64,000 nucleotides of DNA from an uncultured Candidatus Peribacteria bacterium (GTDB lineage Bacteria; Patescibacteriota; Gracilibacteria; UBA1369; UBA12473), in NCBI GenBank assembly GCA_964459205.1, contig CAYWKJ010000001.1, positions 2,759 through 66,758 of the forward strand, in the 5' to 3' direction. The translations under genes were made by a program, and so were the position numbers. Within the stretch, counting starts at the first letter, position 1, and the number at the start of each line of letters is the position of its first letter. Shown here piece after piece: positions 2,794-60,789 of this stretch. Under the pieces are notes generated by a model, which was not told the origin of the DNA, made no database searches, and saw only the letters and a list, made by a program, of their open reading frames with translations.

Positions 2794-3733
2794 TTGTCGC
2801 GATTTTAACGAGCTCTTCCACGTCGTAATAACGGCAGCTTTCGATCAAGAATAGAAGCTCTTCGAACACGTCGCCATCAATAAATGGGCAGAAGTAATCG
2901 TGAACATTATCGACGCCAAGGGCCACTTTTACGCCGGCTTCGACTAACTGCGGAACGGGAGCAATTGAGTTGTGAACCGGGGCCATTTTGTCGCGCATTT
3001 GTACGCCGTCGATCATCGAGCGTGGGCAAACCACTACTGGCATTTCGGCTTCTTTTATAAGCTTGATTACCTCGTGCATGTAATCGTCTTTTTGGGCGGC
3101 GAGCGAGCAGCAGTGAATCGCGTTTACGCGGCCTTGTAGGCCGTGCTCAATGACTTTGCGAGCGAGGAGTTCTGTGTCTTTTTCGTCGGGATCGTTGTTT
3201 TGGTCAATGTGGACGTCGACAGTCTTGTTGTGTTTTTTGGCCATTTCAAAAATGTAATCCAAATGTTCGGCCTGATTAGGTCTGTCGCGAGAGGGGAGGC
3301 CGCCGAGGACATCCACAAATGGGGCCGCTTTTTCGATCCATTCTTGGGCCTCGGGGTTCATGGCACCTTCTAGGACTTGTGAACAGATTTGGATGTCGAT
3401 GCGGTCTTTGTATTTTTCCTTAACTTCGAGGGCGGCCTCAACGCACATCATCCCAACTGTGTTATCTACATCGATGTTGGTGCGCGTTAAGGTGCAGCCT
3501 TGGGCAATCATTCGTTCAGCGCTTAGGGAAATTCGTTTCACCAATCCCTCATGCGTGTATTTTTCTTTAATTTGTTTCCATAAATCCCATTTCACCTCCA
3601 TGGAATCTAAGGTCATTTGTAAGGTTTCGGGGGAGATGACATAAGCTTTGTCAAAATGAGCGTGACAAGATACAAGTCCACCATTTTTAGCGATTTTTTC
3701 GCGGAGTAAAGCGTGAAGATCCCAAGGTTCCAT
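2762..3733 (-). CDS. Metal-dependent amidohydrolase, cytosine-deaminase-like
   Basis: 323 aa. Has SCHAHFDK (HxH-type metal site), internal His residues and GVDNVHD, as in the TIM-barrel amidohydrolase superfamily. Confidence 0.55.
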   Translation of the reverse strand: MEPWDLHALLREKIAKNGGLVSCHAHFDKAYVISPETLQMTLDSMEVKWDLWKQIKEKYTHEGLVKRISLSAERMIAQGCTLTRTNIDVDNTVGMMCVEAALEVKEKYKDRIDIQICSQVLEGAMNPEAQEWIEKAAPFVDVLGGLPSRDRPNQAEHLDYIFEMAKKHNKTVDVHIDQNNDPDEKDTELLARKVIEHGLQGRVNAIHCCSLAAQKDDYMHEVIKLIKEAEMPVVVCPRSMIDGVQMRDKMAPVHNSIAPVPQLVEAGVKVALGVDNVHDYFCPFIDGDVFEELLFLIESCRYYDVEELVKIATTNGREILEKI

Positions 3734-3736
3734 AGT

Positions 3737-5086
3737 TTAAGTGTTCATTAAAGTATTAATTTCCTTTTCAATGCGGTCGATGCCGAGATTTCCGGTACCT
3801 CCCTGATGGGTGGACATTTCTAGCCAGCGGTTAATGTCTTCCTCCGTAACATTTATTTTATCAATATTAGCCCCAATTTCGCGGTACGCATCGCGGAACG
3901 TCATGCCCTCTTTTACCCTTTCAAAAGCCTTATGTGCGGCAAACAGCCCCGGACAACTAAGCATGGATTTTGTAAGGATTTCCGTGTTTGGTTCGATATT
4001 ATCTAAAATCACTCCCATGGCCTCAAGTGACATTTCTGTGTAGCGCATGCCAAGGAAAAGCGGTCGTTTGATTTCTTGCCCATCTCGGTGATATCCAGAA
4101 ATTTTGTTCATAATATTTAAAGTAACTTCGTTGCGACAGGCCAGCACGGTGGCAGTGCGTCCCCGAATGAGCTCACCAACATCAAGATTCTTTTTTTGCG
4201 GCATAATCGACGAGCCAGTAGAAATTGAATCGTCCATCAAGAAAAACTGGAATTCCTGGGTCGTGAAGAACAATAAATCACAAGCCAAGCGATTCAAGGT
4301 AAGCATAATTTGTGAGCAAGCCTCCAAAACAAGGCCTTCGATTTTCCCGCGAGAATTGTGGCAGTAAATTACATTGTTTTGAGTTTTTTTAAATCCAATT
4401 TCTTTACTTAGCCAATCGCGATCAAAATCAAAAGGAGATCCGTATCCCGCTCCTGACCCAAGTGGGTTTTGATCTACAATTTGGTCGTTAATAGCGATTA
4501 ATAATTTGGCATCGTCCATGAGGCTCTCGGTGAAAGCCATAATCCAAGACCCCACAGTTGTTGGCATGGCTTTTTGCATGTGAGTGTAGCCAGGCATAGC
4601 CACCATTTCGTATTGTTTAGCAAATTCCACGCATTTAGTGGCTAGCGCTAATACTTGCTCCTGGATAATTTTAGATTTTCTTTTCAAAAACCAACGCATC
4701 ATTACTAAAACTTGATCATTTCGGGATCGCCCAGTGTGGATTTTTTTGCCAGTATCACCTAGCCTTTCTATTAAATAGTCTTCAATTTTGGTGTGAGAGT
4801 CTTCGTCTTCAACTTTTAGCTGAAATTTTCCTTTTTCATAAAGTTCCAAAATTTCGTCTAATCCCTTTTCAAGTTGGGCTAATTCTTCGGTGGTAATTAA
4901 GTCATGTCTTTCGAGTAAGCGAGCGTAACAACGGGAGCACCAAATATCATCAGGGATCATTTCTTGGTCATAAATGATGTCTTCGCCAGCGTTGTATTCT
5001 TCGACTGTTTTGTTTAAAGAGACTTCTTTGTTTTTAAACCAAATCTTCCGTTTGACGGTTTGGTCGGAATCTTTAGGGTCGCTCAT
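3737..5086 (-). CDS. argH: Argininosuccinate lyase-like (fumarate lyase superfamily)
   Basis: 449 aa. Carries GRSRNDQV and the signature GSSIMPQKKN. Confidence 0.7.
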   Translation of the reverse strand: MSDPKDSDQTVKRKIWFKNKEVSLNKTVEEYNAGEDIIYDQEMIPDDIWCSRCYARLLERHDLITTEELAQLEKGLDEILELYEKGKFQLKVEDEDSHTKIEDYLIERLGDTGKKIHTGRSRNDQVLVMMRWFLKRKSKIIQEQVLALATKCVEFAKQYEMVAMPGYTHMQKAMPTTVGSWIMAFTESLMDDAKLLIAINDQIVDQNPLGSGAGYGSPFDFDRDWLSKEIGFKKTQNNVIYCHNSRGKIEGLVLEACSQIMLTLNRLACDLLFFTTQEFQFFLMDDSISTGSSIMPQKKNLDVGELIRGRTATVLACRNEVTLNIMNKISGYHRDGQEIKRPLFLGMRYTEMSLEAMGVILDNIEPNTEILTKSMLSCPGLFAAHKAFERVKEGMTFRDAYREIGANIDKINVTEEDINRWLEMSTHQGGTGNLGIDRIEKEINTLMNT

Positions 5087-5249: not shown

Positions 5250-7208
5250 ATGAATCAAAGACAGAATACGGGGGAAGATGATAAAAAATTTCAGAAAAAG
5301 ATGGCTAATATCGACCAATGGCTCGATGAGCTTTCTCATGTGAAACCCGCAGCATCTCAGCCCAAACAAACTAAAAAAGCGGTACAACAAGCAGCGCCCA
5401 TAAAAGCTGCGCCTATTAAGGCAAAATCAGTTCAGAAAAATCGTCCGAATCCTCAGAAGAGGCGTCATCATAAAAAAACTAATAATTCAAGACGACGTAA
5501 TCACCCTGCGAAGCAAGGTCGCTCTAATAAAAAGGCTAAACACAATTTAAGGATCATTCCTTTGGGGGGATTTGAAGAGATTGGTAAAAACATGATGTTA
5601 TTTGAATATGGAAACGATATTTTAATCGTTGATATGGGATTTCAATTTCCAACTGAGGATATGCTGGGGGTAGATTATGTTATTCCAGATGTTACTTATT
5701 TAAAAAAGAAGAAGAAAAATATCCGGGGCGTGTTTTTAACGCATGGACATTTGGACCACATTGGTGGGCTTCCTTATCTTTTGCCTAAGCTTGGCTTTCC
5801 CCCTGTTTACGGAATGCCACTTACAATTGGCTTGGCTAAGCGCCAGTTAGAAGACTTTGGCCTGGGAGATAAGGTTAAATTGCACACTTTTCGGGCGGGC
5901 GATGTGTTTAAGCCTGGATGTTTTCGGCTTTCTTCGTTCCGAGTGAATCATAGTATTCCAGATGCCGTATCTTTTGTAATTGATACGCCGGTGGGACGAG
6001 TGGTGCATACTGGGGATTTTAAATTTGATAAAACCCCACATGATCAAAAGCCTGCAGATTTAAATATTATTAAAAAAGTGGGGCGGGAAGGTGTGTTGGC
6101 CCTTATTTCAGATAGCACCAATGCTTTGGAGCCGGGTCACACAACTTCAGAAAAAGTAATTGCTCAAAATTTAGATAAAATTATTAAAGAAGCGCCGGGA
6201 CGATTAATTGTGGCTTCATTTTCTTCACTAATTGGGCGGTTGCAACAAGTAATGGATTCTGCTGTCCGTCATAATCGAAAGGTTTTTATTTCTGGGCGCA
6301 GCATGATCACTAATGTGAAAATTGCGCAAGAGTTGGGGCTTATTAAGGTTCCCAAGGGGTTGATTATTGATATTAAAAAAATGAAAAAATACAAAGATCG
6401 CGAGATTATTGCCCTAACTACTGGTAGCCAGGGTGAAAACTTTGCGGCTTTGGCTCGAATTGCCACAGATAATCATGCTCATGTACGAATTCGCAAAAGC
6501 GACACTGTGGTTCTTTCGTCTTCGCCAATTATTGGGAATGAAACCTCGATTATTAAGGTTATTAATATGCTTTGTCGTCGTGGGGCGCGAGTAATTACTA
6601 ATAAAGATATTGATGTGCACACTTCTGGGCACGCCAAACAAGAGGAGCTAATGATGATGATTCGAATGCTTAAGCCAAAGTACTTTATTCCCGAACACGG
6701 AGATTATTATATGCGTTCAAGGCATGCAATTTTAGCTACAAAATGTGGAGTCGCAAAAAAGAATATAACCCTTATGGATAATGGGGAAGTGGTGGAAATT
6801 ACCCCTCAGCGCGTAATGCAAAAAACTAAGGAGCGCGTTCCGGCTGGCCACGTGATGGTGGAAGGCTCAGACCGCTCAGAAGTTGCCGCTGAAATTTTGA
6901 TGGATCGCCAATTAATGGCGGAAAATGGAGTGGTTACGGTTACCTTCCGCATGCGTCGAAAAGGTAAGGTTTTATCTGGAAAACCACAAGTTATTAGTCG
7001 TGGATTTGTGTTTGCAGACCAAGCAGATAAGGTCGTTAAAGGCATCCAAGTGGCTAGTGAAAAAGCTTATCGAACTTTTATGAAATCTCACAAGAAGCAG
7101 GCCCCGGAAAAGGAGTTCTTGATTTTTGTGCAAAGATCTGTGGATCGCAAGCTGGTTCGAATGCTAGATAAAAGGCCGTTAGTAATTCCGCAAATTATTT
7201 ATGTTTAA
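5250..7208 (+). CDS. rnj: Ribonuclease J (beta-CASP metallo-beta-lactamase) with a Lys/Arg-rich N-terminal extension
   Basis: 652 aa. Has THGHLDHIGG (HxHxDH) and overall RNase J layout. The first ~100 aa are basic and low-complexity. Confidence 0.85.
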   Translation: MNQRQNTGEDDKKFQKKMANIDQWLDELSHVKPAASQPKQTKKAVQQAAPIKAAPIKAKSVQKNRPNPQKRRHHKKTNNSRRRNHPAKQGRSNKKAKHNLRIIPLGGFEEIGKNMMLFEYGNDILIVDMGFQFPTEDMLGVDYVIPDVTYLKKKKKNIRGVFLTHGHLDHIGGLPYLLPKLGFPPVYGMPLTIGLAKRQLEDFGLGDKVKLHTFRAGDVFKPGCFRLSSFRVNHSIPDAVSFVIDTPVGRVVHTGDFKFDKTPHDQKPADLNIIKKVGREGVLALISDSTNALEPGHTTSEKVIAQNLDKIIKEAPGRLIVASFSSLIGRLQQVMDSAVRHNRKVFISGRSMITNVKIAQELGLIKVPKGLIIDIKKMKKYKDREIIALTTGSQGENFAALARIATDNHAHVRIRKSDTVVLSSSPIIGNETSIIKVINMLCRRGARVITNKDIDVHTSGHAKQEELMMMIRMLKPKYFIPEHGDYYMRSRHAILATKCGVAKKNITLMDNGEVVEITPQRVMQKTKERVPAGHVMVEGSDRSEVAAEILMDRQLMAENGVVTVTFRMRRKGKVLSGKPQVISRGFVFADQADKVVKGIQVASEKAYRTFMKSHKKQAPEKEFLIFVQRSVDRKLVRMLDKRPLVIPQIIYV

Positions 7209-7730: not shown

Positions 7731-8840
7731 ATGAAAGTTAAATGTAAACAAAAGGATCTCTCCTTTGCTTTGAATTTAGTGAATCGAGCGGTCAGTCCAA
7801 ATACAACACTTCCGGTATTGAACAATATTTTAATGAAAGCCGAAGGAAAAAGGCTTTATTTTTCCGCTACAAACTTAGAGGTGGCCATGACTTATTTTAT
7901 TGATGTTGAGGTTTTCAATGAAGGATCGATTACAATCCCAGCCAAATTAATAACAAGTTATGTTTCTTTGTTGAAGGACGAAGAAGTTGAATTAAAACTT
8001 GAGGATCGTTTGAGTTTGTCTTTGAAGACCCCACTTTCTCATACAAAAATTAAAGGAATTGACCCAACAGAATTCCCAGTTATTCCTGAGGTTGAAAAAG
8101 GGGAAGAATTTGCCATTGCTTCTGAGGCTTTGGAGCGAGCAATTGGACAAACTGTTTTTGCGGCCTCTTCAAATGTTTCACGTCCGGTTTTAACTGGTGT
8201 TTTATTCCGTGTGGATAAAAAAGAGCTTTCCATGGTGGCCACAGATAGTTACCGTCTCTCTGAAAGAAAGGTGAATCTTAAAAAGGGAATTACTGATTTG
8301 CACGATTGTGTTGTTCCGGCGCACACCGTGTCGGAGCTTGGAAAGATTTTAAGCTTTTTTAATGAATCAATGGTTGATTGCCATGTTACAAAAAACCAGA
8401 TTTTATTTTCAGTTCAAAACCTAAAAATCATTTCTCGCTTAATTGATGGAAGCTTTCCTGATTATAAAAGAATTATTCCAAATAGTTCAAAAACCAACCT
8501 AGAAGTTAATGTTGAAGATTTTATTTTGGCAGTTAAAAAAGCCTCCTTGTTTGTGAAGGAGACTAACAATAATGTCAAAATTAGTGCAACCAATAATGGC
8601 AAACTAATTATCTCGACTGATGAAACTCAAATCGGTGAGGGCACAGCCGAGGTTGATGTGAAAATTGAAGGAGAAAATAACATGGTAGCCTTAAATGCCC
8701 AGTACATTTTGGATGTTTTGTCGCACATGAGTGACCAGACCATAAAACTTGGCATTGACAATAAGCTTTCCCCTGTTACAATAAAGCCCGAAAAAAAGGA
8801 GGCGCAGTATACGCATATAATCATGCCTCTTAAGTTGTAA
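7731..8840 (+). CDS. dnaN: DNA polymerase III beta sliding clamp
   Basis: 369 aa. Three-domain clamp length with typical N-terminal (..LNLVNRAV..) and C-terminal (..IIMPLKL) sequences. Confidence 0.9.
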   Translation: MKVKCKQKDLSFALNLVNRAVSPNTTLPVLNNILMKAEGKRLYFSATNLEVAMTYFIDVEVFNEGSITIPAKLITSYVSLLKDEEVELKLEDRLSLSLKTPLSHTKIKGIDPTEFPVIPEVEKGEEFAIASEALERAIGQTVFAASSNVSRPVLTGVLFRVDKKELSMVATDSYRLSERKVNLKKGITDLHDCVVPAHTVSELGKILSFFNESMVDCHVTKNQILFSVQNLKIISRLIDGSFPDYKRIIPNSSKTNLEVNVEDFILAVKKASLFVKETNNNVKISATNNGKLIISTDETQIGEGTAEVDVKIEGENNMVALNAQYILDVLSHMSDQTIKLGIDNKLSPVTIKPEKKEAQYTHIIMPLKL

Positions 8841-8847
8841 AAACGTT

Positions 8848-11800
8848 ATGAAGTTTCCGCATCCGCGAAACCAAGAAGTTCTCAAACTTTTTGGGAATCA
8901 TCGATATGTAACTTTATCTGGAGCAGGTAATTTTTCTTCCAAAGCTTTTCTGGTATCTGACATTTTGGACCAATATCCTGAGCTTAAAAAATTGGTTTGG
9001 ATTGTAAATGATAGCGTGGAACAAGAGTCTGCACATCGTGTTTTGCGAGATTGGACAGACTATGATGTAGAGATTTTAAATGAAGATGAAGGGCACTTTT
9101 CAATGATGCGTGTTTTATCAGCTTTGCTTGGTCCGGACAAGGTAGCGGCGGTTTTAACTTTTCAGCAGATTTTGGACCTTTATCCGAAAAAAGATGATTT
9201 AAAAAGAAAAACCTTACAAATTAAAGTTGGTGAAGAAATGAATTCCGCAGAGGTTTTTGAAACCTTGATTGATATGCAATATGAAGTTTCTGAGGATCCA
9301 TATTTGGAGCAAGGTCGTTATTTGCGGCACGGAGATGTTTTGGATGTTTTTCCGATTAATAGTCGAGAGGCGATTCGGATTGAATTAGAATTTGATCGAG
9401 TCTCTGCTATTTATACTTACGAACAAGGCGACCACCAAAAATTAAAGGATTTAAAGGAGGTTACGGTTTTCCCCCTTAATGTTTTTGAGAATACAGTGTC
9501 GATTTGGGATTATCTTGGAAAGGATGCGTTGTTGGTGGAGGATGAATTGGATTTAGCTGAGGATTTATATCGTGAGGTTGATAATATGGTTAAAAAGAGG
9601 CCAAATGATGTGGGCTATGTTTTGTTTACATCGTTTTTGGAGGAGAGTGAATACCACTTTCATTTACATTATTTGTCCGTTCTTAAATACCAAAATAAGT
9701 TGGATTTCTTGGAGGCTATGAAGGAGCGAACTTTGGATAAATGGCGGATTTATTTGTTCACAAAAAACGGAGAAGAGTTGCGTGAGTATTTTGACGATCG
9801 TCGAATTTTGCATGTTAATGACCCTTCAAAATTAGATGATGAGCGCGGAGGAATAGTCTTATTTGAATTAGAAAAAGAGCAGCCTTTCCCGCATGGATTT
9901 CAAAATCCTCATTTAAAATTGGCGTTGGTTACGGATAAAGAAATTATGGGATTGCGTGATGGAGCCCATAAAGATCCAGCCCAGCATGCAGTGTTTTTAG
10001 ACTTTTTAACAGGTTTAAAAATTGGTGATTACGTGGTCCACTCAGATCACGGAATTGCTCGGTTTAATGGGTTGGATAAGCGTACGATTGATGAAGTAAC
10101 GCGTGAGTATTTGCACTTGGCTTATGCCGAGAACGATAAACTTTTTGTGCCAATTGACCAGGCGGACAAGGTAAGTAAATTTATTGGAGCTGGAGATCAG
10201 GCGCCGCGTTTAACTCGCTTAGGATCAGCGGAGTGGTCAACAATTACTAATAAAGTTAAAAAAGAAACTCACAAAATCGCTAAGGAATTACTTAAGCTAT
10301 ACGCTGAAAGGCAGCGGGCAACAGGGCATGCTTACAAGACTGATGGCGTGCTGGAGGGCAAGTTTGCGGAGGAATTTCCATATGAAGAAACTCCAGGACA
10401 ATTACGAGCAATTCAGGACGTATCTAAGGACATGGAACGCGCTAAGCCGATGGATCGTTTGGTTTGTGGAGATGTTGGTTTTGGTAAGACCGAGGTAGCT
10501 ATGCGGGCTGCTTTTAAGGCCGTGCAGAGCGGCAAGCAAGTGGCAGTAGTGTCACCAATTACAATTTTAGCGGATCAACATTTTAAGTCTTTCACAAAAA
10601 GGATGATTGAGTTCCCGGAGGTGAGGATAGAAATGTTAAGCCGTTTTCGTTCGCCAGCTGAGCAAAAGAAAATTGTTAAAAAATTAAAAAATGGTGAAGT
10701 AGATATTATTATTGGAACTCACCGATTGATCCAGCCAGATATTGGATTTAAAAATTTAGGATTAGTGATTGTTGATGAAGAACAAAGATTTGGGGTGAAG
10801 CAAAAGGAAAAATTTAAAGAACTTCGTCGAGAAGTGGATATTTTGACGCTTACAGCGACGCCAATTCCGCGGACGCTAAATATTAGCCTGCATGGCTTGC
10901 GAGACATTACAACCATTACTACGCCTCCTCCTGGCCGTTTGCCAATCGTGACTGAAGTTCGACGTTTTTCATTTGGATTAATTCGTGAATCAATTTTGCG
11001 TGAATTAGATCGCGGCGGGCAAGTTTATTTCCTTCATAATAGAGTGCAAACAATTGATGAGATGGCCGACCGTCTTAAAAAATTAATTCCAGAAGCTAAG
11101 TTTATTACGGCTCATGGGAAGTTAAGCCCCCATGATTTAGAGGCTAGAATTATGTCTTTTAAGGAAAAAGAATATGATGTGCTGGTAAGTTCAACAATTA
11201 TTGAAAATGGAATTGATCTTTCTAATGCTAATACTTTAATTGTAAACAAAGCGGAGAAGTTTGGATTAGCCCAGCTTTATCAATTGCGAGGCCGAGTGGG
11301 ACGTAGCAAAAAACAAGCATACGCGTACTTTTTGTACCATTCACAGCGATTGCCATTAGACGCCAAGAAAAGACTTCGCGCCATTGTTGAGGCGTCTGAG
11401 CTTGGCGCCGGATTCCAAATTGCTATGAAGGATTTAGAAATTCGTGGCGCGGGAGATATTTTAGGAGCTAATCAACATGGGGCAATTCAAGTGGTGGGAG
11501 TAAGTCATTTTATCCGAATGTTAAATCAGGCGGTAGAAGATCAGAAAGAAGGACGTGAGGCTAAGGCAACAACAGATGTGCCGCGTGATGTTTCGATTGA
11601 AGTTCCTTTGCCAGCCTTTATTCCAGATGATTATATTGTGAGCGCTAAGGACAAGATCGGAATTTATCAGCGCCTAGCTTCAGCTGACAATTTTGATTAT
11701 CTTGAGGAATTAAAAGATGACATGGTGGAGGATTATGGACGCATGCCAAGAGAAGTGGCGAATTTGTTTAGCGTGTTGGAGATTAAATTATTAGCCAAGA

Positions 11801-12060
11801 GGGCGGGGCTTACTAATATTCGAGCGGAAAATATTCACGGAAAAGGGGAGCGCATAATTATACTTTCAATGTCTGATAAAGTGCGCCCGGAAAACATCTT
11901 AAGCTTATTAGAATTTAATGCTAAATGGTTGGTTAGCGGATCTAAATTAAAAGTTTCTTTTGAGGATTTGGGAGTTAATTGGGTGGACGGGCTTAAGATG
12001 AGCTTAAAAGAGCTAGGGAAAAAGGTAAAAAATCGCCCAGGAACTGAGGTGAAGAAATAG
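8848..12060 (+). CDS. mfd: Transcription-repair coupling factor
   Basis: 1070 aa. Has a CarD-like RNAP-interaction domain (YVVHSDHGIARF) and SF2 helicase motifs GDVGFGKTEVA, VDEEQRFG, TATPIPRT. Confidence 0.9.
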   Translation: MKFPHPRNQEVLKLFGNHRYVTLSGAGNFSSKAFLVSDILDQYPELKKLVWIVNDSVEQESAHRVLRDWTDYDVEILNEDEGHFSMMRVLSALLGPDKVAAVLTFQQILDLYPKKDDLKRKTLQIKVGEEMNSAEVFETLIDMQYEVSEDPYLEQGRYLRHGDVLDVFPINSREAIRIELEFDRVSAIYTYEQGDHQKLKDLKEVTVFPLNVFENTVSIWDYLGKDALLVEDELDLAEDLYREVDNMVKKRPNDVGYVLFTSFLEESEYHFHLHYLSVLKYQNKLDFLEAMKERTLDKWRIYLFTKNGEELREYFDDRRILHVNDPSKLDDERGGIVLFELEKEQPFPHGFQNPHLKLALVTDKEIMGLRDGAHKDPAQHAVFLDFLTGLKIGDYVVHSDHGIARFNGLDKRTIDEVTREYLHLAYAENDKLFVPIDQADKVSKFIGAGDQAPRLTRLGSAEWSTITNKVKKETHKIAKELLKLYAERQRATGHAYKTDGVLEGKFAEEFPYEETPGQLRAIQDVSKDMERAKPMDRLVCGDVGFGKTEVAMRAAFKAVQSGKQVAVVSPITILADQHFKSFTKRMIEFPEVRIEMLSRFRSPAEQKKIVKKLKNGEVDIIIGTHRLIQPDIGFKNLGLVIVDEEQRFGVKQKEKFKELRREVDILTLTATPIPRTLNISLHGLRDITTITTPPPGRLPIVTEVRRFSFGLIRESILRELDRGGQVYFLHNRVQTIDEMADRLKKLIPEAKFITAHGKLSPHDLEARIMSFKEKEYDVLVSSTIIENGIDLSNANTLIVNKAEKFGLAQLYQLRGRVGRSKKQAYAYFLYHSQRLPLDAKKRLRAIVEASELGAGFQIAMKDLEIRGAGDILGANQHGAIQVVGVSHFIRMLNQAVEDQKEGREAKATTDVPRDVSIEVPLPAFIPDDYIVSAKDKIGIYQRLASADNFDYLEELKDDMVEDYGRMPREVANLFSVLEIKLLAKRAGLTNIRAENIHGKGERIIILSMSDKVRPENILSLLEFNAKWLVSGSKLKVSFEDLGVNWVDGLKMSLKELGKKVKNRPGTEVKK

Positions 12061-12074
12061 GGGGTGCTGCTGGG

Positions 12075-12102
12075 TTGACAATTTTAAGGCTTTTGCCATA
12101 AT
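12075..12102 (+). promoter_or_regulatory. Putative promoter of element E1
   Basis: GGGTTGACA, 16 nt spacer, CATAAT. It starts 14 nt after the mfd stop codon. The same GGTTGAC-16-TATAAT layout precedes E2 and E3, and E5 has GGTTGACA with a 17-nt spacer and TAAAAT. Confidence 0.5.
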
Positions 12103-12190
12103 GAGATCCTGAATTTATTCGGGTCTGTTTTTTGGGCGTAAGATTTGATACCCATTTTGGGCGCTAGATTTTCCCCAGCTATGCAGAATT

Positions 12191-12659
12191 GACAACTGGA
12201 TGATAGATTTTGACGTTGGCTATTTGTTACTCATTAAATTGGGTGATGGTTAGCCAGCGTCAATATGCCATAGACGCTTGAGCAGAAGGAGTCCTGATGA
12301 GTAGAGTGATGCTGATCCTGCCAGGAGTATTGGCCTGGCTATGCCGAGGGATCGGGGGAGCTGAAGAGCTATACCCTCTGGTCCCGGCCATGTTTCCCGG
12401 TCGTGAGCCACCTCCGGGACGCGTGGAAAGAGTGCTCCCGCCTGAGGGGCAGCCGGTCACGGTCGTGCTGGTGATGCTCTGTTCGAAGGGCGAGACGTGC
12501 GAGGAGCTGTTCTGCCCGCACGAGGAAATCTGCCCGTATGATGACTGGCCGGTGGGCGGCACCCCAAGCTAGTTTGGGGCTGGAAAGCTAAAAAGCTTGC
12601 GTTTGCGGAAGGGGGAGGCGTCGTCTCCCCTGGTGTGAGGTTTCTATCATCCAGTTGTC
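12191..12659 (+). other. GC-rich helix-bracketed cassette E1 (arm to arm, 469 nt)
   Basis: Perfect 16-nt inverted repeat: GACAACTGGATGATAG (12191-12206) and CTATCATCCAGTTGTC (12644-12659). A 13-bp hairpin at 12210-12263 has one U-G wobble valid only on the + strand. Three GC-rich hairpins precede the 3' arm. Confidence 0.65.
12297..12572 (+). CDS. Hypothetical small protein inside E1 (91 aa, or a shorter Cys-rich C-terminal product)
   Basis: AAGGAG lies 5 nt before the ATG. The distal half has G/C-ending codons. GC-rich DNA also leaves the opposite strand open, so coding status is uncertain. Confidence 0.35.
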   Translation: MSRVMLILPGVLAWLCRGIGGAEELYPLVPAMFPGREPPPGRVERVLPPEGQPVTVVLVMLCSKGETCEELFCPHEEICPYDDWPVGGTPS

Positions 12660-12720
12660 CAAAGCCTTCAAACCAATTATGATTGGCTTACAGAAATTCT
12701 TGATTGCTCTTTTACACCAC

Positions 12721-13156
12721 GGGGATGTCTTGGTTTTGACAGGAAGAGTTCTGTCTTACTCACGGCCGTTACGGGATCGCGCTGTCTCCCGTTAGATCCG
12801 TCCAGCGCATATATAATTGCAAATTCTGAATTTGCTAAATCAGTTAATTACTGGGCAAACAAATTTGTTCCTCAGGGAATGAAGACTGTTCCTGCCTTTG
12901 CTTAATTATCAGATTTACAGATCGCCCTTTGCGCGATCGCGCCTTTTTAAGGATTGCTTTACGACTTATTTAGGCGTCATTTAGTAAAGATCGGAATTAA
13001 AGTGGAGGTTCAGCACTTTATGCCCTAAATTTTCCTTGTCCATTTATGAGAGCTTTTTGTTCGTCCTTTATTCTCATAAACATTAGAACGAACTATAACG
13101 GTAGATGTGGTAGGCAGCCTTTTTGGACGCGGGTTCAACTCCCGCCATCTCCACCA
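12721..13156 (+). ncRNA. ssrA: tmRNA (ssrA), 436 nt
   Basis: 5' GGGGATG pairs with 3' CATCTCC, including the G3-U wobble, followed by ACCA. 5' GGTTTTGACAGG resembles the conserved tmRNA 5' block. The 3' end GGACGCGGGTTCAACTCCCGCCATCTCCACCA nearly matches E. coli ssrA as I recall it. The tag frame runs from GCA at 12819 to TAA at 12903-12905. Confidence 0.9.
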
Positions 13157-19259: not shown

Positions 19260-19337
19260 AATATTGGGGATAAATAAACGGATTTAAGGGCGGACGAAAA
19301 AATAGCACTTTTTAAGGTGCGTGGCAATAGGGTTGGT

Positions 19338-19981
19338 GACAACTGAATGATGAAAGATGGTTCGAGTCTCCCCGCTCCGGACGGCCTCGGGGCCGAACGG
19401 GCGCGGGGGGGGTCGGGACAATCAGCGGGTCGGGGTCGGGATCTCCTCGCGGGACTGCGGGCTGGGGCCGCCGGGCGCAGGGCCGGTGGTGGCGGTCTGG
19501 CGGAAGTAGCTCCGGGCCTCGGTCGAGAACGAGCCGTCCATCACCAAGTTCTTGACGGCGCGGTTCTGGACATCGAACTCGGCGATGTTGTCCTGGAGCG
19601 TCTGCAGGATGTAGTGGCCGTCCCGGAGCTGGCCATCATCGGAGATGCATTCGGGGACCAGCTTGATCGTGAAGAGGTCGCGAACGAGAACGTCGCCCGG
19701 CTTGATCTTCAGCTTGGGCTGCGCGTTCTTGACGACGAAGACGAAGCCACGGCTGGAGTCGCCCGAACAGTTCGGAACAACCACGACGTAGAAGCCATCC
19801 TTGAGGCCGTTTTTGGTGGTGATGCAGTCGCCCGGCAGGACGATGTGGAAAGTAGGCAGTTTTGCCATGTGAACTCCCTATGGGTTAACGGGGGATGGAC
19901 ACCATTGCTAAGAGGGCGCCGCTTTTTACCTTCAAAAAAAGCAAAAAGCGACACCCAAGCAGCATTCATCATTCAGTTGTC
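19338..19981 (-). other. GC-rich helix-bracketed cassette E2 (644 nt, sense on minus strand)
   Basis: Perfect 16-nt inverted repeat GACAACTGAATGATGA (19338-19353 / 19966-19981). A 14-bp hairpin at 19914-19956 has two U-G wobbles valid only on the minus strand. A 3' hairpin sits at 19382-19395. Confidence 0.7.
19422..19868 (-). CDS. Hypothetical protein, cargo of E2 (148 aa), foreign high-GC codon usage
   Basis: GGGAG lies 5 nt before the ATG. Third codon positions are almost all G/C, unlike every housekeeping gene in the window. The amino-acid composition is balanced. Confidence 0.65.
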   Translation of the reverse strand: MAKLPTFHIVLPGDCITTKNGLKDGFYVVVVPNCSGDSSRGFVFVVKNAQPKLKIKPGDVLVRDLFTIKLVPECISDDGQLRDGHYILQTLQDNIAEFDVQNRAVKNLVMDGSFSTEARSYFRQTATTGPAPGGPSPQSREEIPTPTR

Positions 19982-20134
19982 AAAGTCTATGTTTAGAGAG
20001 AGTTTAACAACTAACTAGTAGTATTAAATTCCACTCTAGTAATATAGATCCGGGTCTATCCCCAGAAGTAGATTGCTAGCGCGAAACATTAGCTGCCCAC
20101 CTCTATGGATGACGGAATTAGGGTGGTGAATATT

Positions 20135-20162
20135 ATTATAGTGTTTTTTGAAAAAGAGTCAA
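20135..20162 (-). promoter_or_regulatory. Putative promoter of E2
   Basis: On the minus strand: GGGTTGACT, 16 nt spacer, TATAAT. Confidence 0.5.
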
Positions 20163-20177
20163 CCCTAATGGTTGACT
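20157..20177 (-). terminator. Palindrome AGTCAACC/GGTTGACT followed by a T-run, putative E3 terminator that contains the E2 -35
   Basis: 8-bp stem with a 5-nt loop, then CTTTTTCAAAAAA on the minus strand. It lies 12 nt past the E3 3' arm. Confidence 0.4.
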
Positions 20178-20189
20178 TAAAGGATTGGT

Positions 20190-20848
20190 GACAACTGAAC
20201 GATGGTTTTCCGCTCCGAACGACTCCGTAGTCGAACGGGCGGATCAGGGCTTGTTTAGCGGTTGGGGAGGAGCTTGGAGAAGATCTCGGAGAGAGCTCTT
20301 CTCAGGATTGCGAGGCGAGAGTTTGGTACGATTCTGTAGTAGCTGTGAGTGTAAGGATTTACCAGTGGGCGTTCGTACTTTTTGGTTACAACGACCAGCC
20401 TGTGCGTTGGGGTTGTTGTGGCGTGGGTTTCCCCATCAGTTGTTTTGTATAGAGGATAGGTTCCGCTTTTTAGATTCGCATGGCACCGTACCTCGTTGGT
20501 ATCCTGATCTATCCATGCCCATTGTTGGCGGCAGCCGATGCGTACGATGAACCATTCTTTACCAAAAGGATCATTTTCATCGTACTCATATATGCCTCTA
20601 GTGCGGGCAACGCGTGGCAGGGAAAAACCTTCTGGATCGAGGCCTTTTATGGCTAGATCCTTACGAGAGTGGGTCCATTTTCCCCATGCGAAGAGGAAAG
20701 GAAAAACTTTCAAGGCATTGTCCTATGTTGCAGTCTGCCCCATGGCAGTCCTGCGGGTAAGCACCACTATTTCTGGGTGCCACTTTTTATCTTTAAAATA
20801 GTTAAAAATAAGAAGCGACACCCAGGTGTTATTCATCATTCAGTTGTC
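20190..20848 (-). other. GC-richer helix-bracketed cassette E3 (659 nt, sense on minus strand)
   Basis: Arms are 20190-20205 and 20833-20848. They form 15 contiguous bp on the minus-strand RNA, including one U-G wobble that would be a C/A mismatch on the plus strand. A 13-bp hairpin at 20773-20825 has two wobbles valid only on the minus strand. A 3' hairpin sits at 20220-20233. Confidence 0.7.
20255..20713 (-). CDS. Hypothetical protein, cargo of E3 (152 aa, TTG start as tracked)
   Basis: Long ORF with protein-like composition. No similarity to the E2 cargo. The RBS is weak (AGGAC) and the start codon is uncertain. Confidence 0.5.
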   Translation of the reverse strand: MKVFPFLFAWGKWTHSRKDLAIKGLDPEGFSLPRVARTRGIYEYDENDPFGKEWFIVRIGCRQQWAWIDQDTNEVRCHANLKSGTYPLYKTTDGETHATTTPTHRLVVVTKKYERPLVNPYTHSYYRIVPNSRLAILRRALSEIFSKLLPNR

Positions 20849-20939
20849 AAAATCTATATGTTTAGAGAGAGATTAACTACTAGCTAAAGTGTTAAGGCCT
20901 ACCCTAAGGATATAGGCCTGGATCAATTTCCAGTAGTTT

Positions 20940-20967
20940 ATTATAATGCTTTCCTTAAAAAGGTCAA
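20940..20967 (-). promoter_or_regulatory. Putative promoter of E3
   Basis: On the minus strand: GGGTTGACC, 16 nt spacer, TATAAT. It begins 3 nt after the PBP1A stop codon. Confidence 0.5.
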
Positions 20968-20970
20968 CCC

Positions 20971-44395: not shown

Positions 44396-44521
44396 ACCCC
44401 CTTCGTTAAGGTTGTTCGTAAAAAGTAAGCTTCGCTAAACTTCGTAAAATTTTCCTCGGGGCCCGCGAGACCCGGAGAAAAATGTTTACTACGTGCGCTC
44501 AGCTTATTTTTGCTCACGCTT
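44396..44521 (+). repeat. Copy A of a conserved module of about 115-130 nt (second copy at 47605-47734)
   Basis: About 94% identity to copy B over roughly 114 nt, by hand alignment. Contains TTGTTC-18-TAAACT, a CTCG..CGAG hairpin, and GGAG followed by ATG of a tiny sORF (44482-44553, MFTTCAQLIFAHAFYILAYQKRL). Confidence 0.7.
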
Positions 44522-44551
44522 TTTATATTTTGGCGTATCAAAAAAGATTGT

Positions 44552-45046
44552 GACAGCACGAGTTTTGGTGGTGGTTAAAGGCGGACCCATGGGCCCGGGA
44601 GGGGGACTCTTCTCGCGGCGCTCGGCGCCGGTCGTCGAATGAGTCCTCGCCTCCTCTGGCGGCCGCAGGTGGGCACTGGGGGAGCGTTCATGGTTGTTCT
44701 CGCCGTCGTCACAGCGGCCGAAGCCACTGCTCAGGGTCGAACGCACACAGTTTCATTCCCAGCACCGGACTTAGATTCCGGTAGTAGTCGAAGTATTCAG
44801 TTTTGCGGTCGCCTAGTAGACGTTCTACTAGGACTTTGGGAACCCGATCAGCCGGCGTATGGCTAGGTCAGGTCCAGCGCCTCGTGGTACGTGATCTCGA
44901 TGTTGCGACCGTGCGTGTCCAGGATCTCGATGTGGTAGTGCGCCTGCATGGCTTCACCTCAAACCTTTCTCCCATTTCTGGGCGACAACCTCTTATACAG
45001 AAGATGAGAAGCTGGCGTCCAGAAATGAGTTAAAACCCGTGCTGTC
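44552..45046 (-). other. GC-rich helix-bracketed cassette E4 (495 nt, sense on minus strand)
   Basis: Arms are 44552-44566 (GACAGCACGAGTTTT) and 45032-45046 (AAAACCCGTGCTGTC). They form 15 bp on the minus-strand RNA with one G-U wobble that would be an A/C mismatch on the plus strand. Confidence 0.65.
44863..44949 (-). CDS. Small ORF in E4 (28 aa, MQAHYHIEILDTHGRNIEITYHEALDLT)
   Basis: GAGGTG lies 5 nt before the ATG. 27 of 28 codons end in G or C. Confidence 0.4.
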   Translation of the reverse strand: MQAHYHIEILDTHGRNIEITYHEALDLT

Positions 45047-45139
45047 AAATGTCAGCCTGCTTTAATGAGGGGTAGCCGTTCCTTGGGGTGGAAGACGAAT
45101 CCTACAATTGCTGCAGGGAAGCCAAAAAGGCTTGGTTTG

Positions 45140-45169
45140 ACCTTAGCGAAGGGCGGGGCTTATTGTCAA
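45140..45169 (-). promoter_or_regulatory. Putative promoter of E4
   Basis: On the minus strand: TTGACA, 18 nt spacer, TAAGGT. This is weaker than the others, but the spacing to the 5' arm (93 nt) matches E1, E3 and E5. Confidence 0.3.
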
Positions 45170-47604: not shown

Positions 47605-47734
47605 ACCCCCTTTTCCCTAAAAGGTTGTTCGCAAAAAGTAAGTTTCGCTAAACTTCGTAAAATTTTCCTCGGGACCCACGAGACCCGGAGAAAAATGTTT
47701 ACTACGTGCGCTCGACTTATTTTTGCTCACGCTT
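47605..47734 (+). repeat. Copy B of the conserved module (see 44396-44521)
   Basis: Same layout as copy A. The sORF at 47695-47742 encodes MFTTCARLIFAHAYL. The module ends 17 nt before the E5 3' arm. Confidence 0.7.
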
Positions 47735-47751
47735 ATTTATAATTGAGTTGG

Positions 47752-48112
47752 GACAAGGTGATAGTGAGTTCGTGTCCCTCCTGCCGCCGTATATGGGCAG
47801 GTAGGGAGCGCTCGAAGAGTGTTTCAATGATAGTTTCCGCCTAAAGGCGTCTTTTCAAAGAATATCTCACCAATGGGAGCTGATCGCTACGCCGCTGCTA
47901 GAGGCCGCGGAGAGCGGCTTCGATGCCAGCGACGAGACATCCAATCCCGCCGGACACGCTAAGCCCAATAATGAAAAGACTCATTGAGCCTCCTATGTAA
48001 GAGAATGCGCCCACAAGGGACGCGACTAACCTTGGCTCATTCCGAAGGCAGCCACAAACTGGTTTTACAAATAAGCTCATGGCTGGCTTCGGAAGCCTAC
48101 TATCACCTTGTC
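47752..48112 (-). other. GC-rich helix-bracketed cassette E5 (361 nt, sense on minus strand)
   Basis: Perfect 14-nt inverted repeat GACAAGGTGATAGT (47752-47765 / 48099-48112). A hairpin of about 17 bp at 48034-48097 lies next to the 5' arm. Confidence 0.65.
47898..47984 (-). CDS. Small hydrophobic peptide in E5 (28 aa, MSLFIIGLSVSGGIGCLVAGIEAALRGL), type-I-toxin-like
   Basis: Consensus AGGAGG lies 4 nt before the ATG. It predicts a single TM helix rich in small residues. The tracked 60-aa version starts inside the 5' hairpin with no RBS. Confidence 0.45.
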   Translation of the reverse strand: MSLFIIGLSVSGGIGCLVAGIEAALRGL

Positions 48113-48204
48113 AAATCCTGCTTAGGCACGAGAAACGAATACGCATCGGGGATGGATTCGTATCTACGGTTGATTTGCAGGCCTGGGCAATTCCCAGGAG
48201 GGGT

Positions 48205-48233
48205 ATTTTAGGTTGGAAGGATTAATTTGTCAA
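48205..48233 (-). promoter_or_regulatory. Putative promoter of E5
   Basis: On the minus strand: GGTTGACA, 17 nt spacer, TAAAAT. The -35 contains the TGA stop codon of the upstream gene. Confidence 0.5.
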
Positions 48234-59684: not shown

Positions 59685-60737
59685 ATGTTGGCCGAAACCC
59701 TCCTAATTTTATCTGGTTTGTACTTGGCTTGGAGCCTGGGTGCGAATGACGCTGGGAATATTATTTCTACAGCTGTTGGGTCGCGTACGATTTCGTACAA
59801 AAAAGCGATTTGGGTTTTTATTATTTGTTTAGCGATTGGGGCAGTTTTCTTTTCGGGGGAAGTTATTAAGACGGTGAGTTCCGGGATTGTGCCTAGTGAG
59901 GTAATTGGAATGAATCAGGCGACGATTGCTTTGTTTGTGGCGGCTGGATGGGTTCATTTTGCGACTTGGAAAAAGTGGCCAGTTTCGATTAGCCAATCTG
60001 TTGTGAGTGCGGTTTTGGGAGTGGGGATTGTGGAAAGTTTGCGCGTGGGAGTGAATTTGATTTTTTGGGAAAAAGTTTTGATTTTGGCGGGAGTTTGGTT
60101 GTTTTCACCGGTGATTGGATTTTTGGTGGGCTGGATTTTGTTTAAGGTTGTGCATGGGTTTGTGCGCCATCGGCACCTTTATTTTAAAGACACATTGCAT
60201 GATTTGTTTACAGATCCAATTGAGACGGTAGGGGAGATTGTAAGTGGTGAATTGAGGCGAAGGGAGAAGGTTTTTAAAGGGATTTTGTTGTTTTCGGCGG
60301 GATATATGGCGTTGGCCTTGGGATCGAGTACCGTGGCGGCCACAACTGGTTTGCTGTGGTCTGGGTTTGGGGGAATAGAGGTTGATTTTGATTTATTAGG
60401 AGCTTTAAAAATTGGAGTTTTGGTGGCCGTAATACTCGGAATTGTGACTTTTGGAAAAAGATTGATCGATTTTATGGGAAATCGGTTGGTTAAGTTGAAT
60501 GCTTTGCGAGGGGGGATTATTCAATTTGCTACGGCTTCGGTGATTTTGGGGTGTGCTTTGATGGGGTATCCAGTTTCTTCGACTGGAGTTTTTGTAGGGT
60601 CTTTTTTGGGAGTTGATTCTGGTGAAGACCATCCAAAAATGAAAAAACATGCGGCTCGTAGCTTGTGGATGGCGTTTTTGGTAACGATTCCGGTGGTGGT
60701 TGGAGTTTCGGGTTTGGTTAGTTGGGTTTTGGGTTGA
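59685..60737 (+). CDS. PiT-family inorganic phosphate transporter
   Basis: 350 aa. N-terminal GANDAGN signature and multiple TM helices. Confidence 0.7.
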   Translation: MLAETLLILSGLYLAWSLGANDAGNIISTAVGSRTISYKKAIWVFIICLAIGAVFFSGEVIKTVSSGIVPSEVIGMNQATIALFVAAGWVHFATWKKWPVSISQSVVSAVLGVGIVESLRVGVNLIFWEKVLILAGVWLFSPVIGFLVGWILFKVVHGFVRHRHLYFKDTLHDLFTDPIETVGEIVSGELRRREKVFKGILLFSAGYMALALGSSTVAATTGLLWSGFGGIEVDFDLLGALKIGVLVAVILGIVTFGKRLIDFMGNRLVKLNALRGGIIQFATASVILGCALMGYPVSSTGVFVGSFLGVDSGEDHPKMKKHAARSLWMAFLVTIPVVVGVSGLVSWVLG

Positions 60738-60789
60738 CGTTTAGTGGAAAACGGGTATATATTTAGCGCCGTTAATTCACCCCCACCCC

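Follow-up and report, generated by a model that had tools for sequence, protein, structure and literature searches.

What occupies the 660 nt between mfd and ssrA in an uncultured, low-GC Candidatus Peribacteria bacterium, and how might it be accommodated in front of the gene for transfer-messenger RNA (tmRNA)? This spacer lies in the 64,000-nucleotide stretch of DNA analysed here (positions 2,759 to 66,758 of contig CAYWKJ010000001.1, assembly GCA_964459205.1; hereafter the window), and a sequence-only reading had described an element in it, E1, as an inserted promoter plus a helix-enclosed, GC-rich RNA. The short spacers of relatives, the presence of the E1 scaffold at a second locus and an asymmetry of G-U pairs between the two strands all bear out that description. 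Relatives of its Mfd protein place the window among the Peribacteria/Peregrinibacteria, which belong to the candidate phyla radiation (CPR). E1 sits in the 5' leader of ssrA, and our analysis indicates that it is a member of a small family of 'helix-bracketed expression cassettes', restricted in lineage and present in this low-GC genome, and that the conserved part of these cassettes is an RNA frame while the variable part is a small gene. Our leading explanation, which we hold with rather less than even confidence, is that the frame acts as a processing and stability bracket resembling that of an intervening sequence (IVS) and hosts an accessory gene inside a host transcription unit, which for E1 would be the ssrA leader.

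E1 lies on the + strand. Its sigma-70-type promoter, TTGACA-16-CATAAT (12075-12102), begins 14 nt downstream of the stop codon of the mfd-like open reading frame (ORF; stop at 12060), matches the consensus at 11 of 12 positions and is extended by a TG before the -10 hexamer. A leader hairpin, CCUGAAUUUAUUCGGG, and a U-run follow at the 5' end of the transcript (12108-12133) and scored as terminator-like; the earlier suggestion that this stem attenuates transcription fits poorly with the homologous leader hairpins of other units, which have no such run, and with the position of the E1 hairpin at about +1 of the transcript. The remaining leader (12134-12190) ends at a conserved RAUU-UGACA junction, beyond which the 5' arm of the closing helix, GACAACTGGATGATAGA (12191-12207), pairs with the 3' arm, TCTATCATCCAGTTGTC (12643-12659). 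This long-range helix is perfect, as had been read, over 17 bp rather than 16, and extends to 19 bp if one mismatch is allowed. Within it, a long 5' hairpin (12210-12263) grows to 22 bp when its six G-U pairs are counted, with a folding free energy (dG) of -31.3 kcal/mol on the sense strand versus -15.4 kcal/mol on the antisense strand. A Shine-Dalgarno (SD) site, AAGGAG (12286-12291), stands 5 nt before the ATG of a 91-aa orphan ORF (12297-12572; 12286-12572 with its SD), the product of which has a hydrophobic N-terminus and a Cys-rich C-terminal half containing four of its five Cys. Three GC-rich hairpins (CCCCAA/TTGGGG, AAGCT/AGCTT and GGGGAG/CTCCCC; 12562-12630) precede the 3' arm in both the minimum free energy (MFE) and centroid folds. 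A spacer of 61 nt (12660-12720) separates the 3' arm from ssrA (12721-13156, 436 nt), the downstream partner of E1 outside the element. The spacer carries a small hairpin, ~24 nt with homology to the ssrA leader of relatives and a weak promoter-like site, TTGTCC-17-TATGAT (12655-12683; 9 of 12 matches). No terminator-like sites were found between E1 and ssrA. Aside from the attenuator and the length of the helix, the parts of E1 that had been read from the letters were thus all recovered, including the G/C-ending codons and four Cys of the distal half of the ORF.

GC content within E1 is 59-67%, versus a window mean of 42%. The + strand RNA spanning 12110-12720 folds with an MFE of -256.5 kcal/mol (z = -8.9) versus -204.5 kcal/mol (z = -4.6) for the - strand, and both the closing helix and the 5' hairpin are present in the MFE fold and in the centroid fold. 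A contig from an independent assembly in Logan (run SRR8146440) is base-for-base identical to 12177-13154; exact-protein look-ups recovered only two short Logan contigs, both from this run, which is mentioned in no indexed paper. Two features of the locus deserve a record in their own right. The E1 leader contains ~15-nt direct repeats, UGGGCGNNAGAUUU, at 12133-12147 and 12158-12172, with a third copy at 12197-12211 in the 5' arm; these repeats (UGGGCGNNAGAUUU, UGGAUGAUAGAUUUU; 12133-12211) are 25 and 39 nt apart, the last one overlapping the 5' arm, and could represent a motif for protein binding or a nuclease site. In this clade the tmRNA is long (433-436 nt; 12721-13156 in the window and 9864-10296 in locus L002) and its tag is unusually long at 28 aa, reading ANSEFAKSVNYWANKFVPQGMKTVPAFA in the window.

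Comparison of the mfd-ssrA region among relatives, which the sequence-only reading had proposed as a check, indicates that E1 is an insertion. In L081, the closest relative (Mfd 88% identical), the spacer measures ~22 nt and has no content, and TGCTCTTTTACA directly upstream of the tmRNA is common to this locus and the window. In L086 (Mfd 73%) a spacer of 64 nt holds only a TTGACT-17-TAnAAT promoter ~30 nt before the tmRNA, and in L085 (Mfd 76%) a spacer of 81 nt holds only an ssrA promoter of the same type, so that the spacers of these three relatives span just 22-81 nt. Locus L002 (Mfd 75%), with a spacer of 659 nt, carries an E1-like bracketed unit at this very site: the E1 scaffold around unrelated GC-rich content. 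The promoter, parts of the leader, the 5' arm, the 5' hairpin, the SD and start region and the 3' arm of the two units are homologous, with 15 of 15 nt identical in the 5' arm and compensatory changes in the 5' hairpin, whereas their GC-rich interiors align at random level only.

The comparison also bears on the transcript to which E1 would belong. The promoter at 12075 sits where L085 and L086 have their ssrA promoter, and the ~24 nt immediately preceding the tmRNA are similar to the ssrA leader of these two loci; most simply, the inserted piece would correspond to ~12103-12696, within the ssrA leader. An insert in this position makes co-transcription of E1 and ssrA likely. As relatives keep an ssrA promoter at this point, the E1 promoter may in fact be the host ssrA promoter, which, if so, would strengthen the earlier idea of a shared E1-ssrA transcript. 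Two further features downstream of mfd were seen. In L082 (4460-4843; also in L083 and L084, all metagenome contigs with Mfd 74% identical), a spacer of 384 nt holds a promoter, the leader hairpin CUCGGAGUUUGUUCCGGGG and a GC-rich 79-aa ORF with no closing helix; this insert is either a bracket-less relative of E1 or an independent insertion of a small gene at the same hot spot. In L021, from another Peribacteria genome, an unrelated palindromic element without an ORF lies ~90 nt past mfd (3613-3792); its 26-bp perfect inverted repeats and nested palindrome give it the look of a miniature inverted-repeat transposable element (MITE), a repetitive extragenic palindromic (REP) sequence or a complex terminator.

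Is E1 alone? Beyond what the sequence-only reading had linked to it, four sister units, E2 to E5, lie in the window with the identical directional layout, which gives this genome at least five, and the unit at L002 is a sixth. The E1 arm sequence recurs with three mismatches at 19338, 19965 and 20832; the E1 17-mer and its relatives occur five times in the window versus 0.05 expected by chance, and five GACA-initiated 15-nt inverted-repeat pairs 150-1200 nt apart were found versus ~0.05 in shuffles. All four sister units lie on the - strand. E2 (19337-20165) has its promoter at 20165-20135, a helix formed by 19982-19965 with 19354-19337, and a 148-aa ORF (19868-19422). E3 (20189-20970) has its promoter at 20970-20940, a helix formed by 20849-20834 with 20204-20189 that includes one G-U pair, and a 152-aa ORF (20713-20255). 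E4 (44551-45169) has a promoter-like TTGACA-18-TAAGGT at ~45169-45140, a helix formed by 45047-45032 with 44566-44551, again with one G-U pair, and a 28-aa ORF starting at 44949. E5 (47752-48233) has its promoter at 48233-48205, a helix formed by 48112-48099 with 47765-47752, and an ORF starting at 47984 for a 28-aa hydrophobic peptide, MSLFIIGLSVSGGIGCLVAGIEAALRGL. The closing helices thus have their outer ends at 12191-12659 (+) for E1 and, on the - strand, at 19982-19337 for E2, 20849-20189 for E3, 45047-44551 for E4 and 48112-47752 for E5. E3 and E2 stand in tandem and form a 1.6-kb insertion that reaches from the stop codon of the PBP1A gene to a lipoprotein gene; the same spacer measures 57 nt in L002 and ~85 nt in L086, which are empty sites.

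Eight parts in constant order make up the scaffold of E1-E5 and L002: a promoter with a (G)GGTTGAC -35 hexamer and a TATAAT-like -10 hexamer; a hairpin at the 5' end of the leader, which reads CCUGGRRAUUGAYCCAGG in E3, E5 and L002 and to which the E1 leader hairpin is homologous; a conserved RAUUU-UGACA junction; a closing helix of 14-19 bp; a hairpin of 53-64 nt that begins 2-8 nt past the closing helix; an CAUAGGAG-type SD site, correctly spaced from its start codon, with an ORF (~47-65 aa in L002); GC hairpins; and the 3' arm, followed by CCAAY. The GGGTTGAC promoter type of E1 recurs upstream of E2, E3 and the L002 unit, and the AGAUUUUGAC junction is also present in E2, E3 and E5. The E3 promoter abuts the PBP1A stop codon and the -35 hexamer of the E5 promoter overlaps the stop codon of the gene upstream. 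Overlap or abutment of a GGTTGAC(A) -35 hexamer and an upstream stop codon was seen at 48228-48233 (-), 60731-60738 (+) and 20970 (-), and at two such promoters the stop codon is formed by the TGA within TTGACA, an arrangement that looks normal for a very compact genome. In E3 (- strand, 20722-20708) the ATG at the usual distance from the SD site stops after two codons (AUG CCU UGA), and the 152-aa ORF has a TTG start overlapping the stop of this short frame, which suggests reinitiation or a decayed start.

The family appears narrowly distributed. The scan for GACA-initiated pairs gave none in ~80 genome loci of other Peribacteria (~1 Mb), and a related scan of 80 metagenome loci (~1 Mb) was equally negative; over ~2 Mb of Peribacteria loci in all, L002 was the only further member that scans for inverted-repeat pairs returned. 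A permissive, G-U-tolerant scan for further members gave mostly chance matches, and those inspected in L020 and L041 lay inside coding sequence; it also picked out a 20-nt G-U-tolerant inverted-repeat pair ~750 nt apart (4756-4775 with 5523-5542), with normal GC content between its arms, that spans the end of one ORF to the region upstream of the RNase J gene. A different repeat lies 3' of E4 and E5 in the - sense. This 117-nt sequence (44408-44524 and 47621-47737; copies 94% identical) folds as a ~95-nt imperfect hairpin, more stable on the - strand (z = -3.1), and had no match in Rfam; a diverged sequence with the shape of the 117-nt repeat lies beside tRNA-Gly in L086 (~5815-5915; z = -4.8). 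The repeat may be REP-like, or it may serve this clade as a conserved terminator or a small RNA.

Do the helices of the scaffold act in RNA or in DNA? Beyond UGACA, the arm sequences differ between units with complementarity kept. In a register alignment made by hand, 9 of 16 pairs of the closing helices are changed on both sides and 93.8% of cells are paired versus 75% in shuffles, with none of 500 shuffles reaching the observed values. Covariation of this kind is also compatible with co-evolving DNA repeats, and it is the wobble pairs that discriminate between the two. Read on the sense strand, the closing helices contain 96 Watson-Crick pairs, four G-U pairs and no A-C pairs, and G-U pairs in the six 5' hairpins number 27 on the sense strand versus five on the antisense strand. 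Each of these hairpins is more stable on the sense strand (dG of -26.6 to -34.5 versus -15.4 to -28.9 kcal/mol), and the hairpin that RNAalifold derives as a consensus has compensatory changes in 7 of its 14 pairs. In 6/6 units the MFE fold includes both the closing helix and the 5' hairpin (z of -5.9 to -7.7). Because all non-Watson-Crick pairs of the closing helices are G-U on the sense strand and the 5' hairpins share this asymmetry, the pattern of pairs shows that the scaffold helices are maintained in sense-strand RNA. Choosing the strand by the folding energy of whole units was indecisive, with the G-rich antisense strand of E2-E4 folding equally well or better.

This pairing pattern bears directly on an explanation we regard as unlikely, in which the inverted repeats act in DNA, either as the ends of a non-autonomous mobile cassette, like those of a MITE or a mobile insertion cassette (MIC), or as the sites of an invertible ON/OFF switch. 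Much about the units looks the part: (near-)perfect repeats of 14-19 bp stand 330-630 bp apart with the outermost TGACA conserved, relatives differ in presence and absence, the content is foreign in composition, and a promoter outside the repeats with an ORF inside would suit an inversion switch. All mismatches in the repeats are sense-strand G-U pairs, though, and the 5' hairpins have the same bias, which argues for selection on RNA. Moreover, similarity between copies extends past the repeats into promoter, leader and trailer; no flanking target-site duplication was seen and no two copies are near-identical; the ON orientation is found in 5/5 units; and the 20 neighbouring proteins scanned include no transposase, invertase or integrase. 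The Correia repeat-enclosed elements are the closest described parallel of this type, being intergenic and bounded by inverted repeats, with promoter-hexamer-like ends (TTGACA, TTGTCA) and a transcribed helix that RNase III is able to bind or cut (PMC2649163). The units share with them and with MITEs an intergenic position between inverted repeats, an RNA helix when transcribed and promoter-hexamer-like ends, but are 3-5 times longer, carry unrelated coding content, are conserved outside the repeats, and form no high-copy family of near-identical elements with target-site duplications.

What do the brackets enclose? The interiors have no DNA similarity to one another and no common fold. The composition of several of them is nonetheless that of genes: GC content at codon positions 1/2/3 is 0.59/0.42/0.88 in E2, 0.59/0.24/0.97 in E4 and 0.68/0.49/0.72 in E1, where the third-position value (GC3) reaches 0.83-0.90 in the distal part, versus a GC3 of ~0.35 in the host genes of the window. 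This three-base periodicity marks E2, E4 and distal E1 as real coding sequence, past or present, and the codon-position values show content shaped in a high-GC background. E3 is compositionally neutral, and its 152-codon ORF would be unlikely to arise by chance at 49% GC; the ORF of L002 (0.77/0.61/0.68) is not convincing.

The origin of this content was sought in several collections. Neither Pfam nor PHROGs had a match to the E1-E3 ORFs or to the E1 antisense ORF, and tblastn and blastn searches of phage and plasmid collections with the enclosed content were also negative. An exhaustive HMMER search with the E2 ORF against 1.84 billion representatives returned five weak matches over a ~40-aa stretch, to part of an Ig-like repeat of large, multi-repeat, surface-type proteins, which we did not accept as true homologues. 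A link to phages was likewise set aside: 20-mers of E2 and E3 had no matches in IMG/VR, and the 64 matches of an E1 15-mer were single and unpaired and were read as chance. High-GC Peribacteria exist (58.5% GC; PMC4736985), and the Peribacteria loci fetched here reach 64% GC. Such relatives are possible donors, and no donor of the enclosed content was found in the searches above.

These results also weigh on the proposal that the units are non-coding structured RNAs with incidental ORFs, their stable bodies serving as a nuclease roadblock, decoy or scaffold. Few stop codons are expected in GC-rich sequence, GC-rich intergenic islands in AT-rich genomes are a classic hallmark of non-coding RNA, the folds of the units are strong (z-scores of -5.9 to -8.9), L002 has no convincing ORF and no protein homologues were found. 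We nevertheless consider the proposal improbable, given that the interiors lack a common sequence or fold and belong to no Rfam family, that the CAUAGGAG-type SD site is conserved at a proper distance from the start codon and that three-base periodicity is strong in E2, E4 and distal E1. Rfam searches, at the gathering threshold for the whole window and in E-value mode for the unit regions, returned only tmRNA and tRNAs, with nothing plausible at E <= 1 on E1-E5.

If the units encode small proteins, could the pairing of their ends serve to silence them? Type I toxin mRNAs are known for long-range pairing between their 5' and 3' ends, as in the fold-back inhibition of hok and in AapA1 of Helicobacter, and the units could be addiction or defence modules of this hok-like kind, in which such pairing silences a toxic small protein until the mRNA is processed. 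The units each combine a promoter of their own with a small ORF and paired transcript ends; E5 encodes a hydrophobic peptide of 28 aa, and its start codon is occluded (97% paired; SD site, 62%), the SD site and start codon of E4 are ~97% paired, and the E1 ORF opens with a hydrophobic segment. The likeness does not hold across the family, however. The products of E2 (148 aa), E3 (152 aa) and E4 are not hydrophobic and that of E1, at 91 aa, is so at its N-terminus only, leaving most products unlike small hydrophobic toxins; the SD site of E1-E3 and L002 is no more paired than the average for the unit, so occlusion is not general; and no conserved antisense promoter or RNA was found, the sole candidate being a weak 9/12 site at 12195-12168 that is not conserved in the other units. 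We therefore give a toxin-antitoxin module a minor share of our belief, a little above that of repeats acting in DNA.

The explanation we prefer remains the IVS-like bracket. Transcription would start at the 12075 promoter and, together with ssrA, yield a precursor of ~1050 nt, in which the 17-19 bp closing helix pairs both ends of the cassette. The helix and the single-stranded RAUUU junction 5' of it would form a site of endonucleolytic processing and insulation, with cleavage within the helix by RNase III or at the junction by an enzyme of the RNase Y/E type. Such a cut would free a discrete small mRNA, in which the 22-26 bp hairpin and what is left of the helix would protect the 5' end and the GC hairpins the 3' end; it would also liberate a tmRNA precursor, the 5' end of which RNase P would then trim. 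In this way the bracket could render the insertion harmless to the host unit while the accessory small protein is still expressed. Shielding of the 5' end would matter here because the genome encodes the 5'-exonuclease RNase J (5250-7208, upstream of mfd), which is blocked by structured 5' ends. Just upstream of mfd, dnaN (7731-8840) accompanies the RNase J gene, and the window may lie close to the replication origin.

The base of the helix in two units invited a comparison with another processing substrate. In E2 (19337-19341 with 19978-19983) and E3 (20189-20193 with 20845-20850) it reads U(-1) G(+1)ACAAC ... GUUGUC-ACCA, resembling a tRNA acceptor stem with discriminator A and CCA, a possible minihelix substrate of RNase P. 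As a feature of the family, a tRNA-like RNase P minihelix (U at -1, G at +1, 3' GUC-ACCA) was rejected, the full fit being confined to E2 and E3 and not extending to E1, E4 or E5.

Several observations weigh against a processing and stability bracket. A helix of 14-19 bp is short for a classical RNase III site, and E2-E5 lie outside stable-RNA precursors, where removal would not be needed. The bracket-less ORF of L082-L084, behind a similar promoter and hairpin, indicates that a bracket is not indispensable at the mfd-ssrA site. The ORFs of E1 and L002 have a weak coding signature or none; a search of 5.8 billion proteins with the enclosed ORFs returned only the window's own products; and single-sequence AlphaFold2 models of the E1 and E2 ORFs were uninformative, with predicted local distance difference test (pLDDT) scores of 39 and 40. 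Lastly, the evidence comes from six units in two genomes, those of the window and of L002.

Which described system comes nearest to such a bracket? The IVS of Coxiella burnetii 23S rRNA is a 428-nt insert with a 28-bp terminal stem, an ORF and a GC content differing from that of its host, and RNase III cuts it in the stem (PMC4990558). E1 shares with IVSs the outline of a selfish-looking insert of ~0.4-0.5 kb in the precursor of a stable RNA, patchily distributed, deviant in GC content and containing an ORF, and it has the terminal stem formed by repeats, in the shape of the 17-19 bp helix of its MFE and centroid folds. The differences are also plain: E1 lies in the 5' leader of ssrA and E2-E5 are intergenic, whereas no unit lies within a 23S or 16S rRNA helix; the stem of E1 has 17-19 bp versus 28 bp, and its orphan ORF has a good SD site and does not encode an S23p protein; E2-E5 are free-standing with promoters of their own; the content differs from copy to copy; and cleavage, shown for IVSs, is only inferred for E1. 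The closing helix also recalls the a1/a2 repeats around the msr-msd RNA of retrons, as terminal inverted repeats flank a hairpin-rich RNA with its own promoter, and the units could on this view be templates for reverse transcription. We find this very hard to credit: each unit is followed by tmRNA, another unit or the hairpin repeat rather than by a reverse transcriptase gene, no reverse transcriptase was found among the 20 scanned neighbours, and, compared with known msr-msd RNAs, the units are 2-3 times longer; they also contain an SD site and an ORF.

Integron gene cassettes, phage 'morons' and mobile insertion cassettes are modular units with unrelated, mostly orphan ORFs of foreign composition. 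The units resemble them as modular orphan ORFs of foreign composition between host genes, with E3 and E2 in tandem, and differ in that each has its own promoter and an RNA-level bracket. This likeness raises the option that the scaffold is a platform for gene capture and expression that exchanges unrelated foreign coding segments, integron-like but with an RNA-level bracket and no known integrase. The option arises because the window and L002 carry different content within one scaffold at a common site, and because GC3 is 0.88-0.97 in E2 and E4 within a 42% GC genome. No integrase was found among the scanned neighbours, and no attC-like site or prophage context turned up, although no search with an attC model was made; we rate a capture platform as a possibility of low probability, on a par with repeats acting in DNA. 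No prior description of such units in Peribacteria or CPR genomes was found in the literature. Taken together, the units match no described family of RNAs, proteins or mobile elements, and functionally they look most like an IVS-type or RNase III-bracketed insert combined with a 'moron'-like accessory gene.

If the bracket is indeed a processing and stability module, it would offer a tiny, gene-dense CPR genome a route to host accessory genes in essential leaders, such as that of ssrA, without harm. The units would then also be compact natural 'insulated expression cassettes' composed of promoter, 5' hairpin, closing helix, SD site, ORF and 3' hairpins, and the family presents a clean, testable case of pairing between the 5' and 3' ends of an mRNA in an organism that encodes RNase J. 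How bacteria of an episymbiont type come by genes, and from which sources, is a question prompted by the unrelated orphan contents, part of which have a foreign, high-GC codon signature; should the scaffold prove to be a capture platform, CPR bacteria might sample genes from high-GC neighbours or hosts.

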